From Octopus vulgaris (lineage: Eukaryota): DNA of 64,000 nucleotides. The stretch lies in NCBI GenBank assembly GCA_951406725.2, contig OX597820.1, forward strand, positions 94,302,001-94,366,000. Reading direction: 5' to 3'. Shown here in pieces: positions 25,871 through 64,000 of this stretch (the stretch's first letter is position 1; every line of letters begins with the position of its first letter). The notes beneath the pieces were generated by a model, which saw only the letters and a list, made by a program, of their open reading frames with translations, was not told the DNA's origin and searched no databases. The position numbers and the translations under genes were made by a program.

Positions 25871-27069
25871 ATGTATGTATGTGTGTATGTATGTATGTAT
25901 GTATGTATGTATGTATGTATGTATGTATGTATGTATGTATGTATGATGTATGGCTATTACAATTCACAACGGAAAATGTGTAAAATGTGGAAGGGTGTGC
26001 CTCTCAGCTGGAGGTCTGAAAAGACAAGTTAAGAGAGTTCATACGGTGGTACCTGTTTCTTTGCCAGCCTGCACAGCTGTACAGTATGTAATAGAATATG
26101 TAAAACTTTGGCTGGGCTTAAAAGTCATATAAGGGCATCACATGCCATCAATAATGAATCAGTTCAATGTCTTTTTGGCAGTGGCTTTTCTCGTGTAACG
26201 GGGGTGCAGCTATGATGTATGTATGTATATGTGCAGATTTGTATGCTTTGTTTATGTATGTACTCTCATGCATATAGTTGCAAATATAGACATAAATAAA
26301 TCTCAACAAACGAAGCTGGAAAGAAAAGTAAAAGAATGGCTGGAAAATTCAACGCTTTAAATGAGGTCGAGGAAGAACGACAGGATAGTAATACTGAAAT
26401 TGAGGACCGTTGAGGCAGAAAAGAAGCGCCACACCCAATTTACTGGATGAGAAGGGTATGTGGGACCATTCTCATCCAGTTTGGTTGTCCATAACCATAC
26501 AGCAAAATTATCTACCCCATTAAAAAAACCTGATGACAGAGCGAAATTTAAATACCATACCGAATTTGCCAAGGCCCGTTGGATGATAACTAATACATAG
26601 GGAAATGTTTTGAATCTCTCGCTCTACTTCTACGGCCTTCATAATTTTTATCTATATAGTAAAATGACTTTTACTGGGCGGTCTCACGAGAGTACATTGC
26701 TTGCATCAGATGGTTTTAAAAACGAAGAACCATTCTCATCTGCATTGTCTTTATTGTCCAAAGAACGCCTGATTAGTTGATGTTATTGGGGTTGTCTCCC
26801 ATGGTTGTTATTTTCATATTTGTATCACCCCTACAAAAAGATTTCCTTTACTAACTTCATTGAAATATTTTTTAGTAGTTTCAGTTACTGAACTGCGGCC
26901 ATGCTGGTGCACCGCCTTGGAGAATTTTACTCGTACAAATTAACACCTAGTACTTATTCAATAGGTCTCTTTTACCGAATCACTCAGTTACTGGGACGCA
27001 AACACACCAACAACGTTTGTCAATTGCTGATGAAAATAAATAGCACACTCGTATAATATATGTGTATGC

Positions 27070-40689: not shown

Positions 40690-41260
40690 AGTCATGATAT
40701 ACTTGTGTACATGCGTATGGAGGCGGGATATCAAGTGTAGTGTTGGCGAATTTCAGGAAGCATGGAGGTTTTGAAGGATGCAATGTCTCGGCAGCTAACA
40801 ACTGATGCAAATAGTCTGTTCCATCTGAAGTATGGAACAGACTACTTGCATCAGTTTTCGAAGTCATGAGAACTATGCTGCTTTCTGACTTAGTAGGCAT
40901 GACCACATGTGTTAGACACATGGAATTCAAAAAGGTGCGCAAGGTTGTTGTTGGAACAATGGTTAATAATTTTGTTGGTGTTTACCAAGTCAGTTGCAAG
41001 ACGTCGGAGTTTCAATGTATCCATTCCTAGGGAAGCAAGGCGTTCAGAATATGGTAGACGCCTGATGGATGGGATTCGCTTGGTTGCACGACTCTGAACA
41101 GTTTCCAGGAGGTCAATGTTCTGATCAAGATTGAGGTTCCAGACTGGTGATGTATATTCCAAGTGTGGCCGCACCATAGCCGAATACAGTCTTAAATAGA
41201 GTTGGAGAGCGGCTGACAAAGGTCATGCTCAAGTGATACACCCTCGGATTTTTTGACAAT
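40690..41260 (-). mobile_element. CR1/L2-type LINE ORF2 C-terminal remnant
   Basis: LYSAMVRPHLEYTSPVWN...IDLLETVQSRATKRIPSIRRLPYSERLASLGMDTLKLRR. Confidence 0.88.
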
Positions 41261-41284
41261 TTTAGAGATGTGCTTTGTCCAGCG

Positions 41285-41950
41285 CAAATCTTTTTGAAGA
41301 CATCTCCTTCCACCTCATGCAAATTTCTTAATTTTTGTGGCAGGACATTGAAGAGCTGTGGGCCTTTGAACCCTAGAATATTGCAATTCGCGATCCTGAA
41401 TTTAGATGGAGTGGATGGTACAATACAATGGTGGCCAGTTCTGGCATTTGTATAGCACTCAATGCCAAAGTAAGGTAATAGCTCTTCTAGGATTTTCCAT
41501 ATGCGTATTATTGCATATCTCTCACGCCTTCGCTCCAGGAAGTAAAGCTGTAATTTTCTATCCCTGTTGCTCATCCGCTGCACTGTTTCAATCTTATTAG
41601 TGTAGTGGCGTTGGACTGCTTCAAGCACCGCTGTTAGTTTCGCACTATGTGGTGGCTATAACTTGGAGCAGTAGTCCAGGCGACTGAGAACAAAGTTTCT
41701 CCACAGGGTCAACAAAGTTCCTTGGTCTCTTAGTCTTGAAGGACCTCAATATCCATCCTGCCAGTTGTCTGCACTTGGGTTCCATCTTGCTTATGGGCAT
41801 ATGAAATGATGCGTCATTGCACATACTGATCTACTGATCCCCAAGTCTTTCACTGCTCGTGACTCTGGGATTGTAGTGCCTTCAGGACCTGATAATGTAG
41901 ATTGTACTAAATTTTCCAGCATTAAACTGCATGTTGTTTATTTCGCCCCT
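41285..41950 (-). mobile_element. Second CR1-type LINE remnant
   Basis: VLSRLDYCS, LEAVQRHYTNKI, LERRRERYAIIRIWKILE, GPQLFNVLP motifs. Confidence 0.85.
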
Positions 41951-45753: not shown

Positions 45754-46415
45754 AACTTAGATAAACTTAGATATGTTTCGACCAAAGATTGGTCCAGGCC
45801 ATGTCTAACTTAATAGCACCACCTGATAGGATTATTTGAATCCTGTTTAAGTCAAGTTTTGTTTATGGTCCATTCAAGTAGTGAGTTTTTGTTGGGTGAG
45901 TTGTATCCAATTATGGGTGGCTTATCTGGTATTCCTTGAAGGAATCTATCCAGACTCCGTTTAAAGTTGATTGGATCCTTTTCCTCTTTGATCTCTTTCG
46001 GGACAATGTTAAATAGGGCAGGGCCTGTTGAGGAAAAGAAATTATGTTGCAGTGTACATGTATGCTGTGATCTTGAATTGGGCAGGGGACGTATGGCCCG
46101 TGGTCCCAGTCTTGGATGAACCTTGAAGCTAATGTTCAGGTCGTTTGGGCAAAGTTGGCGGTATATTCTCCACATCGTACAAATGATGTACCGCTCACGG
46201 CGACGCTGGAGAGAGTAGAGTTTCAAGGCTTTAAGGCGGTCCCAATAATCGAGAGCAGCCATGCCTTCAATTCGTTTAGTGAGTGCCCTCTGGAGTGATT
46301 CAATCCTCGAGATGTTTTGTCGTGTATGGGGAGACCACAGTGGGCAGCAGTATTCGAGGTGTGGCCGTACAAATGAGGAGAAAAGTGGTATGATGACACC
46401 TTGTTCTCTGGACCG
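45750..46415 (-). mobile_element. CR1-type LINE 3' end (ORF2 C-terminus, 3' UTR, tandem tail)
   Basis: FSSFVRPHLEYCCPLWSP...LDYWDRLKALKLYSLQRRRERY...; tail (TAAACTTAGA)x2. Confidence 0.92.
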
Positions 46416-47609
46416 GTGTGTGTGTGTTCTTATATTCTTTTCTTTTAATTGTTTCAGTCATTTAACTGCGGTCATGCTGGAACACCGTCTTGGGGAATTT
46501 TAGTCGAGCAAATCGGCTGCAATAATGTAGTCTTCCAGTTTCATTGCTATGAAGGTATGATGTTGTGGAGAAAAAGAAAATTGGAAGAAAATGTTACAAA
46601 AGTTTAAAAATCGGAAAACTGTGTATTTTTAGCCAATAGCTCGACAGAAATTTTCTGCGTTTAGCGGAGTGGTGTCAACTTTAAAGTTGTACCTTGTGAA
46701 ATTTATAGTTTAGCATCTGTGAAATGACCTGTCCATTGTAGGTTTCTAAATAAACAGAAATACCTAATAAAATCAACATGTATCATCTTACTGTTCCTTT
46801 TGTATCTTCATTGATTGTATGTTTTTATTTTTTTAATTTGTTATATTAATATATTTGTCTGCATATGTTTACTTTATGCATATTTCAGTATTATGTATAC
46901 CTGCCATTTATTTATGCACATCATTGATATATAAGCGCATGTAGATGTATGTATTCATATATAAGTTTATATGTACATTTATACATTCATGTGTGTATGT
47001 GTGTGTGTGTATGTGTGTGTGTGTGCGTTTGCGTGTGTTTGTGTGTGCGTGTGTGTGTGTGTGAAAAGGAGGCTCCTGTCTCCAAAGCTCCAAAGTTGAG
47101 TAACGTTTTCATGCTTGGATTTGTAAACTACGATAAGAATGACACTGATCAACAAAGAATTTGTCCCAAGAAAAAAGAAATGTGAAGTTAACAGTATAAG
47201 AAATATTCCTGATTTAAATGTTTATGAACAGAATTAACCTAGTGAAATCATAAATCCAGCTATCTCAGTCCCTGAGGGTTGGCAATACTGGCCATAGTGA
47301 TTTAACATCCGATTCACAATGACGGTGTTTAACGCTATTGCGGCAAAGACACAGGTGATGCGAAACGCAACACAGCGTGAGGTTGTTATGGTAACAAACT
47401 GCTATTGCAACGCTGTCTGTTGATTGGCTAAAAATTACCCAAATTTCCACAATTTAATTCCAAATGACATCAGATTCTTCAATTTACGAGATAAAGTAAC
47501 TGGTTGATCGTAATCAAAATTCAGAGATGCATCGATACGCCAAAATTGAAAGCAATCTGAGGAAAATTAAAGGGGGCTCATTTTGCGAATGAGATTGACC
47601 AGATCCAGA

Positions 47610-49514: not shown

Positions 49515-49800
49515 AATACAAAGATAAGTTTTGACCATAATTGGCTCAGGTCATGATTAACTTTAATAGCACCACCAGGTAAAGATATTTAGCGATACTT
49601 CATATTACAGTCGTTCTTTAGGCATCATAGCCCATTCGAATAAATAATTATCTGCAGCGATATATCCGGGTGTAGGTGGTGTATCTGGAATGTGTTGAAG
49701 ATATTCATTCAGTAACCGTTTGAATGTTATGAGATCTTTTTTTTCTCTTACGTGTTTTGGCATGATGTTAAAGAGCGCATAGCCAGTTGAGTATGTAAGG
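49515..49800 (-). mobile_element. CR1-type LINE 3' end, older copy
   Basis: GYALFNIMPKHVREKKDLITFKRLLNEYLQHIPDTPPTPGY parallels 45852-46262; shared TTAATAGCACCACC 3' UTR. Confidence 0.82.
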
Positions 49801-49873
49801 ATTTTTCGGAAAACGAAAAAATACGTTATTGGTTGGATTCTCATTGTTCTACGTGCACCCCATGAACTATTTA

Positions 49874-51209
49874 CACTGGTCAACAGCATAAAACTTTTAT
49901 TTTCCGCCATAAAATCTTAGAGTTGTTTTAGACTAATTTTGGGCTGCTGATTCCATAACTGACCTCAGATTTGTTGCGTTGATATAAACCTTTATTTACC
50001 TGGAACATGCCAAAAGTTAACTTTACACCACTATTTGCAAGAATTTTGGCTGGATTGCCATGCTAATTTTGAATATGTTCAAGCTGAGGTTTTCTTTAAA
50101 ACCCCATTTCTTCTTTTCAGGTGTGAACTGAACCACTGCGTTCTAGTTATGATATAACATCAAAAAGAAGGACGTGTTATAATGATCATGATATCTTCTG
50201 TTACGTCTGTGGAAACTCCACTACACGTCTGTGGAAACTCCACTACATTAATAACTTTGTCAAAAAGGTGTATCTTGCTTACATTAAAGTAGCACTTGGA
50301 GACCAGGACAAAACCTGGGTTTCCCACAAAGTTTGCAAAACCTGTGTTGAAAATTGGTGTGATGAAGCAATTCATCAAAGCTCTTGATCACCGTTGAAAC
50401 TGATTCAGCTATGTATGTACCTTTCCAAGTCTCAGTGATGAGAAGGCAGAAATATTTGATGGCTCAAATATAAACACTTCTCAGGGATCCACGTTTTGTT
50501 ACAACAATGTGTGCGACTGAGGCTAGAGCTTGGAATGCCTTCTCTGATGTGGTGCAGAATTTCCTTGAGAACAGGAAAGCGGATAACAACCAAGAGATTG
50601 TGGAGGAGCTGCTCTTGAGTTTGCTAACACTCGGATGCAGAATGAGCATTAAAATGCACTACTTACACAGTCACTTGGGCGAGTTTTCTGAGAACGTGGG
50701 TGATCTTAGCGAAGAACAAGGTGAACGCTTCCATCAAGACGTAAAAGTAGGGACTCAAACATGATGGTAGATTACTGCTGGAGCTTGATGAGAGGCATTC
50801 CAGAGGCCGTATGCAAGAGGTCGTCAAAGAACCAAAAATAAAAAAGGTAAGTTCTTGCAGTGATAACATGATCAGAATGAATGACCAAAATGAATAAAGA
50901 TTTTGTATTCATATTTTGTTATCACCAAGCTTAATTCTTACATGCTAAGGTGCATTTACTCCTACAACTTTGTGTTCTGATTTATTACATAAAAAAAAAT
51001 ACATATTGTCTATCAAAAATTGTATCTACGTATGTTTAATTCTTCCTTTATGAGCATTAAATAGCTGTTTCTAGCGAAATTGAAAAATTTTTATGCCTCA
51101 AAAATCTGATGTGAAAAATAAAATCTGATGCCAGATTTGAATTCAGCACCCCAAAATTAGTTAAAGACTATTTATAAACATTGTGCCAGAAAATATGTGT
51201 TGACCAGTG
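49874..51209 (+). mobile_element. Chapaev3-type (CMC) DNA transposon, internally deleted, ends intact
   Basis: TTA|CACTGGTCAACA ... TGTTGACCAGTG|TTA; transposase remnants CYVCG, GDQDKTWVSHKVCKTC, MKQFIKALD, GCRMSIKMHYLHSHL..F.EN.G..SEEQGERFHQD. Confidence 0.9.
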
Positions 51210-60450: not shown

Positions 60451-60724
60451 ATATATACATGTGGGTATATGTGTATATACATACACGTGTTTATATAAAC
60501 GTACATATCAATCTACGATAATATGTACATGAAGCAGATGATGGGAATATTTGTCTGATATGCTTGTCTGTCTATGTATCGTTTTGGGGCCTCGTTATTC
60601 TGGCTTGTCATTCGTTCCTATGAGGTCGAAATTGTTTAAGGGTTTATTGTTTTCGATGGTATATTGATATTTAATGATCGCCTTCGTTCGTAGTCTTATT
60701 ATGCCAGGATAATAATTAGGTGTA

Positions 60725-60958
60725 AGGCGGCGAGCTGGCAGAACCGTTAGCACGCCGGGCGAAATGCGTAGCCGTATTTCGTCTGCCGTTACGTTCTGAG
60801 TTCAAATTCCGCCGAGGTCGACTTTGCCTTTCATTCTTTCGGAATCGATAAATTAAGTACCAGTTACGCACTGGGGTCGATATAATCGACTTAATCCCTT
60901 TGTCTGTCCTTGTTTGTCCCCTCTATGTTTAGCCCCTTGTGTGTGATAGAGAAACAGA
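60725..60958 (+). mobile_element. SINE family B, young full-length copy with apparent TSD
   Basis: Complete head to tail; GATAATAATTAGGTGT occurs immediately before (60708-60723) and again at the tail junction (60957-60972). Confidence 0.92.
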
Positions 60959-61094
60959 TAATAATTAGGTGTTTCTAGATTTTAGGTTAAGTGGCAATAT
61001 ATATATATTAGCGTCAAGCTAATGTACTTCTTGAGCACGTCCCCGCGTTCGTTATTCTTTTTTTTCGTTTTTTATCCGTTTATTTGACTTAAAT

Positions 61095-61455
61095 TGCTTC
61101 CCAACCACATGGTTCCATGTTTAGTCTTTCTGTGTGAAACCTTGGGCAACTGTCTTCTACTATGCCCTCGTCTCGCCCAAAGTCTTGTGAGTGGATTCGC
61201 TAAACGGAAACTGAAAGAAGCCTCGTAGTATATATATATGTGTGTTTGTGTGTGTGCGTGTCTGTCTCTGTGTTTGTCCCCCACTATCGCTTGACAGCCG
61301 ATATTGGTGTGTTTACGTCCCCGTATCTAGCGGTTCGGCAAAAGCGACCGATAGAACAAGTACTAGGCCTACAAAGAATAAGTCCTGAGGTCGATTTGTT
61401 CGACTAAAGGCGTTGCTCCAGCATGACTGCAGTCAAATGACTGAAACAAGTAAAA

Positions 61456-61460
<5 letters not shown>
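61095..61460 (+). mobile_element. SINE family A
   Basis: Head remnant, CCTTGGGCAACTGTCTTC, body and GTAAAAGA tail. Confidence 0.85.
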
Positions 61461-61506
<46 letters not shown>

Positions 61507-61628
61507 TATATACACACACACACGAACACACCCACATATCTCTCTCTATATATATGTACGTATGAATGTATGTATATGTATATTTTTGTGTATATATATA
61601 TATAAGCATTTGTATATATATGTGTGTT

Positions 61629-61682
<54 letters not shown>

Positions 61683-61772
61683 TATATGTAGGTCCCGGGT
61701 TGATTCTGGGTTAACCACAGTAAATAAGGTACTCAATACATAGCAGAGTAAAATTAATTTATTATATAGAAG

Positions 61773-61825
61773 GAGCTTCTACAGGACTAGAACTGTTTCA
61801 TTCAAGAGAAATCTTCAGGAAGCTC
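61773..61825 (-). ncRNA. Type I hammerhead ribozyme motif (minus-strand copy)
   Basis: GAGCUUC-CUGAAGA-UUUC-ucuu-GAAU-GAAA-CAG-uucuaguc-CUG-UA-GAAGCUC. Confidence 0.75.
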
Positions 61826-61826
61826 A

Positions 61827-61877
61827 AGCTTCCTGAAGATTTCTCTTGAATGAAACAGTTCTAGTCCTGTAGAAGCT
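61827..61877 (+). ncRNA. Type I hammerhead ribozyme motif (plus-strand copy 1)
   Basis: AGCUUC-CUGAAGA-UUUC-ucuu-GAAU-GAAA-CAG-uucuaguc-CUG-UA-GAAGCU; intact core, GUA triplet ending at 61871. Confidence 0.75.
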
Positions 61878-61879
61878 CA

Positions 61880-61930
61880 AGCTTCCTGAATATTTCTCTT
61901 GAATGAAACAGTTCTAGTCCTGTAGAAGCT
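61880..61930 (+). ncRNA. Type I hammerhead motif (plus-strand copy 2) with G8-to-U core substitution
   Basis: Identical to copy 1 except CUGAAUA at 61886-61892. Confidence 0.6.
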
Positions 61931-62806
61931 CCTTCTATATAATAAATATACATATATATATATATATGTATGTATGTATGTACGTATGTATGTATGTATG
62001 TATGTATGTATGTATGTATGTATGTGTGTATGTATGTATCTATGTATGTATGTATGTATGTATGTATGTATGTATGTATGTATGTATGTATGTATTTGTG
62101 TGTGTGTGTTTTGTAATATGTACGTATTTATAAGTATTGCTATTACTCTCCTGAAGACTTGAGTATCACAAAATTCCACTTTTTCAACGCAATAATAATA
62201 ATCTTTTCCACTCTAGGCACAAGGCCCAAAATTTTTGGAGAGGCGGCCAGTAGATTAGATCGACTCCAATACGCAACTGATACCTATTTAATCGATCCCG
62301 AAAGGGTTAATAAAATAAAGAACCTGTCAAGTATTGGGATCAATATAATCGAATGTTGCCTTCAGCATTGTGCTTATATAAGAATTCCTCATTAAGGGCT
62401 GTGATTTGGCAGAATATTTATATTACGGAGCAAGTTGCATTGCGGTATTTGTCCTGGTCCCGTATGTTCTGAGTTCAAATCCCGCCTTCAGTCCTTTTGA
62501 AGTCGATAGTATTGGTTTGATTTAAGTTCTACCGTACCATTCCCGTTTGAGAATAAAATTGGGTAGACGGAAAGGTTGCTGTCTGTTGGATGGATTTCAC
62601 CTGTATATCAACAGGTACAACCTTGTTACACATGGCGTGTCACACATATTCTACTTGAGATTTACATTAAGGGTACAGTACAGGTGTCTACGGAATACTC
62701 AGCCTTCTACACGCTAATTCAATGATCAAGAAAGTTAATCACTCGAACAATTGAATCCTAATCGTCGAAACCAGAGACGATTCAACCATCTGTGTGTGAG
62801 TGTGTG

Positions 62807-63239: not shown

Positions 63240-63644
63240 TAACACATATAGAGAGAGATAATGTTGCAAACAAACAAATGAAACTGCTCGAGCTAGATAT
63301 ACAAAATATAAATACATATATACATGTAAAAGTGTACATGAGATGGGTATCTATCTTGTTAGATACCCATCTCTGCCCCCCTAAAAAACGGAGACCGGAT
63401 CTACCTAATGTTTATATGCTTCCACAACTAGTTGCATATCCTCGAGTTTTTGCTAACTACATCTGACTATATATATTATGAAGAGATTCCGAGCCCACAG
63501 AAACAGTTGTAAGAGCTTTACCCTTAAATTTTCTGCGTTTATACTGTGTAAGTTTGCTCAGTTAGTATATGAATATCTATATATCTGTACAGGGATACTC
63601 ATCATCTGAATATTTTCGGTCACGTTTTTCACTTTATACATATA

Positions 63645-64000
63645 CTAGCAGTATCGCCCGGCGTTGCTCGGGTTTGTAAGGGAAATAACTATATAAGCAT
63701 TTTTATTTAGAGATGTAAAGTATAATAGCCATCTCAATATGGCTAACCACAAAGGGGGGGGGTTACTGTAGCTTTTACGTTCTGAGATTTAATAATACAT
63801 TTTTAGAGAGTTACTTCCCTTATATAATAGCAAAAAAATGCATTAAAAAATGGGAAAAAATTATGGTAAATTTTTTTTTAAATCATAGACTCATCGTAGA
63901 CGCGCACTAATACTCAGAAGGGCTCGATATGAATCATGACTATAAGATACCCGCTTTTGGTTACACTGCAACGCAAAATGTGGGAGCAGTTAGGAATCTA
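63645..64000 (-). mobile_element. Non-autonomous Helitron, runs off the window edge
   Basis: A|CTAGCAGTATCGCCCGGCGTTGCTCGGG is the reverse complement of the 3' end of 7970-8265; carries an extra ~90-bp internal segment. Confidence 0.88.

Follow-up and report, generated by a model that had tools for sequence, protein, structure and literature searches.

Three copies of a hammerhead ribozyme motif lie side by side within a TA-rich microsatellite in the 64 kb stretch of Octopus vulgaris DNA analysed here (the window), and the question arises whether they form a small self-cleaving unit of their own or belong to a larger mobile element. The initial annotation described a 51-nt unit present once on the minus strand (61774-61824) and twice on the plus strand (61827-61877 and 61880-61930), with a CA dinucleotide in both spacers and identical outer arms of 17 nt; sequence comparison bore out all of these features. 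Copy 1 (minus) and copy 2 (plus) are the same letter for letter, and copy 3 (plus) differs at 61891 alone, where G8 of the core is replaced by U (G8U). The arms of the inverted repeat formed in this way, 61757-61832 and 61872-61947, are 76 nt long each and 96% complementary, while the 53-nt direct repeat shows 98% identity (TRF: period 53, 2.1 copies, start 61819).

The hammerhead parts map as had been claimed, together with the predicted cleavage sites after 61871 on the plus strand and after 61780 on the minus strand. In copy 2, stem I is formed by 61827-32 and 61872-77, the core by 61833-39, stem II by 61841-43 and 61848-50, the GAAA by 61852-55 and stem III by 61856-58 and 61867-69, with an 8-nt loop III at 61859-66. 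The canonical G10.1-C11.1 pair closing stem II is missing, and a U.U at 61840/61851 is found instead. When the type I core (C3-A9, G12-A14, A15.1-U16.1 and H17, with three helices and stem I open) was compared with the three units, copies 1 and 2 agreed throughout, and copy 3, whose predicted site falls after 61924, departed at G8. This substitution removes the C3-G8 pair, and for that reason G8U is expected to abolish cleavage by the core that carries it. In a PLE (Penelope-like element) hammerhead, G8C is reported to abolish cleavage (PMC11167929).

A type I descriptor, applied to the 64 kb window, returned two matches with a strict core and three with a relaxed one, all of them coinciding with these units; shuffled sequences gave any match in 0 of 100 cases (strict) and 3 of 100 (relaxed). 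Similarly, a search for the 24-nt core found three matches against 0 expected. A scan with hammerhead models had been proposed as a check in the initial annotation, and its outcome is divided: the descriptor selects only the three units, but no Rfam hammerhead model matches. The whole window is without an Rfam match at the gathering score, and the 67 matches found in 61500-62200 at E<=10, none of which is a hammerhead family, are to hairpin and microsatellite models below the gathering threshold. The statement that each unit folds as a complete type I hammerhead is likewise correct as a motif match but not in thermodynamic terms (z 0.17 against shuffles, with the full fold at about 2% of the ensemble), and hammerhead activity is a prediction from the motif.

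The extent first given for the cassette, 61690..61947, places it correctly but is too short, as the insertion spans 61688-61947 and its inverted arm is 69 nt longer. The insertion is asymmetric. Its left arm, on the minus strand, consists of the hammerhead, the 17 nt downstream of stem I (61757-61773), and a 3' extension, or tail, of 69 nt (61688-61756), delimited by arm comparison and present in the inverted arm only. The right arm consists of two hammerheads followed by the same 17 nt (61931-61947, plus strand), which form the tail-less right end of the insertion. In both arms, the first bases of the 17 nt can pair back over the cleavage site. At the centre of the head-to-head joint (61819-61832) two stem I strands are opposed across the CA.

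The target of the insertion, clear from TRF, is (TA)n: a TA-rich microsatellite occupies 61458-61687 on the left (period 2, 115 copies). A candidate target-site duplication of 14 nt is found in two identical plus-strand copies at 61674-61687 and 61948-61961, the right one running into (TA)n/(TATG)n, with a boundary uncertain by 2-4 nt. The 14-mer occurs once in each flanking microsatellite and accounts for 7 of the 1861 TA-rich 14-mers of the window, and in both copies the TA run is broken at the same phase. This suggests one insertion accompanied by target duplication, though in low-complexity DNA.

The window as a whole is microsatellite-rich DNA of animal type, with about 19 kb of interspersed repeats, and holds no second copy of the element. 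Two repeats to the left of the cassette, at 60721-60960 and 61088-61518, are overlapped by as many as 8 and 15 self-matches of the window, respectively; we take them to be octopus SINEs. To the right, a 14-bp inverted repeat without mismatches encloses a 6-nt loop at 63340-63373, and a repeat starting near 63645 resembles what we assume to be a Helitron-type non-autonomous end. Four minus-strand frames (45852-46457, 41125-41655, 40890-41222 and 49605-49916) are similar to one another and without a Pfam match; they are presumably C-terminal pieces of a LINE (CR1/L2-type). At 26033-26212, on the plus strand, there is a weak match to a C2H2 zinc finger (Pfam E 0.001, under the curated cut-off), perhaps a host-gene exon. 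A Pfam scan of 143 frames of the window matched no reverse transcriptase or endonuclease family; the set consisted of 142 of the 249 filtered frames of at least 45 aa, less three removed by hand and with three added, and nearly all came from the 145 longest.

Public sequencing runs were then searched for the element. Fractions of 0.42-0.63 of its 19 words are present in 20 of the 24 runs listed (15 studies, seven organisms); as regards expression, no RNA run is listed among those carrying the element. Four runs were examined in detail, all as contigs, three being DNA-type (a type partly guessed) and the fourth, X13, only guessed to be RNA. In the three DNA-type runs, which come from three organisms, 1879, 1806 and 1121 contigs match, and over the left arm together with its tail the depth sums to 0.3-1.2 million. 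Tail depth is of the same order as hammerhead depth in all three, contigs fitting two places blurring the ratio. The unit that recurs is the arm of about 137 nt, made up of hammerhead, 17 nt and tail. Division of the summed depth by the depth of single-joint contigs gives a family size of roughly 1-4 x 10^4 copies, to be read as an order of magnitude only, as the sum is no copy number. The family was not found described in the published literature searched, Repbase and Dfam lying outside that search.

No contig from metagenomes, viruses or prokaryotes matched the element in searches with exact or two-variant patterns. A loose hammerhead pattern did detect 118 metagenome loci, in 33 of 64 collection parts, but these are attributed to chance: 3 of 126 matches have at least 5 possible stem I pairs, and the best BLAST match is a 19-nt AT-rich stretch, with no real resemblance to the element at any of the loci.

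Among family members, variants at a level of at least 3% are listed at four positions; of these the tail has one and the hammerhead three (N7 once, loop II twice), and none falls in the core or the stems. The chance that three of three variants hit the 13 free positions of the 51 is about 0.014, with classes chosen after the data were seen. Lack of conservation of core and stems among genomic copies had been named as an outcome that would count against the ribozyme; what the listed variants show is the opposite, with one weak consensus against. This is a loose-end consensus of run X2 (14 contigs, agreement 0.85, few of which reach the site) that carries G at position 17, a form that, judging from its sequence, should not cleave.

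Since 11 of the 28 pieces listed (4823 more pieces exist) cross the head-to-head centre with differing gaps, ten with 7-10 gaps, their centres being 7-10 nt shorter than the one described above, and one with 1 gap, palindromic copies recur in the family and their centres vary. In run X9, three contigs at 61826 carry an inverted arm of only about 8-10 nt before the TA-rich flank, suggesting very short fold-backs.

In its structure, the element is assignable to the PLEs. As described in the literature (PMC8557442, PMC3846280), the typical PLE layout comprises partial tandems, next to which stands an inverted copy with a truncated 5' side, and a tail confined to one end. In the cassette, an inverted 5'-truncated copy stands head-to-head and a partial tandem is present, and the arrangement recurs with other centres; the initial reading of a type I hammerhead of PLE kind, in tandem and inverted layout, thus agrees with published PLE anatomy. 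The tail is one-sided in both cases, with 69 nt here against 30-40 nt (PMC8557442). The PLE of a 2013 paper (PMC3846280) shares the head-to-head joint, the central palindrome, the tail on one arm and a target duplication of similar order (8-10 bp there). It differs in that the direct units here adjoin with nothing between them, in arm length (68-137 nt here, about 200 nt there) and in its shorter tail (31 nt). Hammerheads of truncated PLEs are reported to be scattered by the thousands per genome, some pairs being on opposite strands (Cervera and de la Pena 2014, PMC4209133). With the minimal, small-helix-III types described there, the present unit has in common a palindromic helix and loop III, a dimer design and a low expected activity; unlike them, it lacks the G10.1-C11.1 pair, its stem II is short, and its stem III is able to close as a monomer.

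A closer placement was sought in the Hydra clade by using the supplementary table of Craig et al. 2021 (PMC8557442), which holds 25 families in 26 rows, one family being present twice and two having the same motif. According to this source, stem II is closed by U.U in 14 of the 25 families and stem III is ACAG/CUGU in 4, most hammerheads lie near the 3' end of the element, and (TA)n is the target listed. The cassette shares a sense type I hammerhead near the 3' end, a short, U.U-closed stem II, a 4-bp stem III and the (TA)n target, and the inverted 5'-truncated copy noted for Penelope-13_HM, a member of the clade, is found here too. There are also differences. Loop III is 8 nt long with an inner 4-nt palindrome, against 1-3 nt in 25 of the 25 families; U.U and ACAG/CUGU occur together here and in none of the 25; and the RT-EN frame linked in Hydra-clade PLEs is not linked here. 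The table row of the octopus family Hydra-1_Obim has a hammerhead different from the cassette unit. A search of the PLE consensus file of the same paper, where line breaks could hide a match, found none of four motifs of the element. For Octopus vulgaris itself, a repeat paper (PMC13282606) gives PLE totals, no sequence being found in its supplement.

The U.U is not specific to the clade, because it is also found at the base of stem II in the axolotl retrozyme hammerhead HHR_Amex2, 22% of which is cleaved in one hour alone, and more as a dimer (PMC7229834). Given this and a loop III unlike that of Hydra families, assignment to the Hydra clade, which is based on hammerhead style and target in a comparison confined, among PLE clades, to Hydra, is about an even call.

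On these grounds the cassette is quite probably one insertion of the extreme 3' end (a pseudo-LTR stub) of a PLE, probably of or near the Hydra clade, into (TA)n. Most likely, a palindromic PLE stub belonging to an abundant family has here had its ribozyme doubled locally, and the stub would be of a kind already known. A PLE reverse transcriptase-endonuclease encoded elsewhere would have nicked the (TA)n target, and cDNA would have been primed from both target ends, with RNA positions 17 and 86 nt past stem I as the starting points. Both cDNAs would then have ended at the 5' edge of the hammerhead and become joined via their self-complementary stem I strands. For the PLE enzyme of Poseidon, cleavage and extension of both strands are reported on AT-rich DNA, as is initiation within its own RNA (PMC11167929). 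A plain fold-back would be insufficient alone, because the inverted arm has 69 nt that are lacking in the direct arm.

The tandem may be explained by a further step. The right-hand core is flanked by a 7-nt microhomology, at 61819-25 and, as present before the duplication, at 61925-31, the left edge of which is the cut site. The palindrome could have supplied this direct repeat on either side of the core, and slippage or a template jump between the two 7-nt repeats would have doubled 53 nt, copying the CA joint; such a doubling would be the reason why both joints read alike. G8U would have arisen in one copy, during or after the doubling. Local slippage is somewhat favoured as the origin of the tandem, and a jump during reverse transcription is appreciably less probable.

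The most serious alternative, which may be entertained tentatively, differs from the best explanation in the template only. It holds that the arm of about 137 nt is itself a non-autonomous mini-element, transcribed from the hammerhead onwards in SINE-like fashion and mobilised in trans by a PLE enzyme. The high copy number is in line with it, as is a fall in depth that each of the three DNA runs shows at the 5' edge of stem I, with joints clustered within about 10 nt of this edge, and one contig of run X13 passes from stem I straight into (TA)n. However, loose-end groups of 7-12 contigs each in runs X3 and X2 lead from stem I upstream into other sequence, tapering depth is always seen at points where short contigs branch, and the window is without a tRNA. 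Longer copies and bare stubs both exist. A reading of the upstream loose ends as splice acceptors was dropped as too thin, and the 4 contigs of X13, one of them lying across the minus-strand cut site, are uninformative on cleavage.

It is unlikely that the tandem alone, with family and inversion both real, is an assembly error at a palindrome placed between microsatellites. The tandem joint (61872-61890) is bridged by none of the 28 pieces listed, no run has more than 0.63 of the words, and PLE insertions are known to trouble assemblies (PMC8557442). Against this, copies 2 and 3 differ by one base, contigs lose rare variants, 4823 pieces exist beyond those listed, and a private insertion would give the same picture. 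In the runs, the two bins of the tandem joint hold 0.03-0.8% of arm depth.

The behaviour of the corresponding RNAs was explored by nearest-neighbour predictions, which leave out tertiary contacts, Mg2+ and proteins. Stem III and loop III are self-complementary, with cross-pairing at 12 of 16 positions; dimeric PLE hammerheads are reportedly the subject of work by Lunse et al. For the two plus-strand copies, a double-hammerhead fold is predicted at -22.5 kcal/mol, against -15.0 kcal/mol for two monomers, and in the ensemble of 61827-61947 the monomer fold of copy 2 accounts for 6e-7 and the dimer cutting geometry for 3%. In the predicted dimer, cleavage at 61924 would depend on the intact copy 2 core and cleavage at 61871 on the G8U core, so that a cut is predicted at 61924 and not at 61871. 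The initial annotation had treated G8U as a defect of one plus copy and had overlooked the self-complementarity of loop III. The substitution is real; because the copy 2 core serves 61924 in the preferred dimer fold, however, it would relocate the cut rather than simply kill copy 3.

For the 137-nt arm, an 8-bp hairpin arising from the 17-nt flank is predicted to cover the cut site, leaving the hammerhead fold at 2e-5 of the ensemble, and this hairpin after stem I could possibly act as a built-in brake. It lies at 61921-61939 on the plus strand and 61765-61783 on the minus strand, has a predicted energy of -5.3 kcal/mol and is without a listed variant at 3% or more. In the preferred reading of a PLE stub, the hammerhead would be the element's own RNA-processing motif, built mainly for action as a dimer via its palindromic loop III. 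In the cassette it probably has the role of a passenger, as read-through RNA is predicted to be mostly a 76-bp hairpin.

A bolder combination of these elements is improbable: the arm of about 137 nt would be a mini-PLE of ten-thousand-copy size, with its hammerhead kept off as a monomer by the 8-nt palindromic loop III and the hairpin over the cut site and turned on as a dimer, and the locus, having doubled the bare ribozyme, would free a 53-nt RNA with a dead core by cuts at 61924 and then 61871. If true, such a dimer-gated mini-PLE locus would show a retrozyme circle in the act of arising, among the smallest sizes on record.

The cassette has features in common with animal non-LTR retrozymes (Cervera and de la Pena 2020, PMC7229834; bioRxiv 10.64898/2026.07.22.740005), which also carry tandem type I hammerheads and are protein-free. 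In contrast to them, the expressed ones of which measure 170-400 nt, a dispersed family is found here, with a rare dimer tandem and one core broken. The preprint (bioRxiv 10.64898/2026.07.22.740005) calls for at least two consecutive units, each a complete hammerhead, and copy 3 fails this rule through G8U, so that on sequence grounds the locus is no active retrozyme by the preprint's definition. It is very doubtful that the locus is a true 53-nt retrozyme, whose tandem would stem from rolling-circle reverse transcription of a hammerhead-only circle and whose monomer would be released again by the dimer cut at 61924 followed by the monomer cut at 61871. In its favour, the cleavage site and the tandem array (start 61819) share the same phase, the dimer fold is near the predicted energy minimum of 61827-61947, with the full cutting geometry at the 3% given above, and published retrozyme consensus lengths go down to 51 bp (bioRxiv 10.64898/2026.07.22.740005). 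This phase, however, follows necessarily from the geometry of stem I and is no less compatible with slippage, the tandem-joint bins are as scarce as stated, and there are two units only. The upstream inverted copy is moreover predicted to draw one unit into a long hairpin, and 8 of the 9 dimers tested in the preprint were without cleavage (bioRxiv 10.64898/2026.07.22.740005). The broader suggestion of an independent unit whose ribozymes function on both strands is likewise unsupported: the repeated unit is the arm of about 137 nt, the triple is rare, and the minus copy has a predicted hammerhead-fold fraction of 1e-53 in read-through RNA, where it would be buried.

The claim that the palindrome would bury the motifs in a long hairpin agrees with the predicted folds. 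Its extension to an evolved folding switch is highly improbable; in such a switch the palindrome would be maintained because pairing between copies 1 and 3 leaves copy 2 in a loop as the sole active ribozyme. When the whole plus-strand RNA is folded, the energy minimum does join copies 1 and 3 along 76 nt and place copy 2 in a loop, with a predicted probability of 0.98 for stem I of copy 2 and a full hammerhead fold in 2.5% of the ensemble; during synthesis, however, the nascent RNA would first lock copy 2 to copy 1 in a hairpin of -110 kcal/mol. The triple is rare and the centres differ among copies, as for an insertion by-product, and the locus gives no sign of conservation. A functional switch or a 53-nt circle is possible but unsupported. 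Finally, a MITE or microRNA-like hairpin DNA element resembling a hammerhead by chance is hardly credible, as the strong hairpin (z -17 against shuffles), the hairpin-type Rfam models scoring below their gathering thresholds and the TA flanks are set against insertion ends that are not mutual inverted repeats (the inverted repeat begins 69 nt inside the left end), variable centres, variants that spare core and stems, and a strict descriptor free of chance matches in shuffles, the one-sided tail, the centres and the variant positions largely refuting both forms of this reading.

A new kind of system is not shown by the locus. If the explanation as a palindromic PLE stub holds, the cassette would represent an abundant hammerhead-bearing PLE family undescribed in the published literature searched. 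Its thousands of very short copies, with joints clustered at the ribozyme edge, would form a good data set on the formation of the head-to-head joints and tails of PLEs, and the same copies would be useful for asking what role the hammerhead has in vivo. The locus itself would illustrate how a palindrome may seed a hammerhead tandem, which is the proposed route from PLE to retrozyme.
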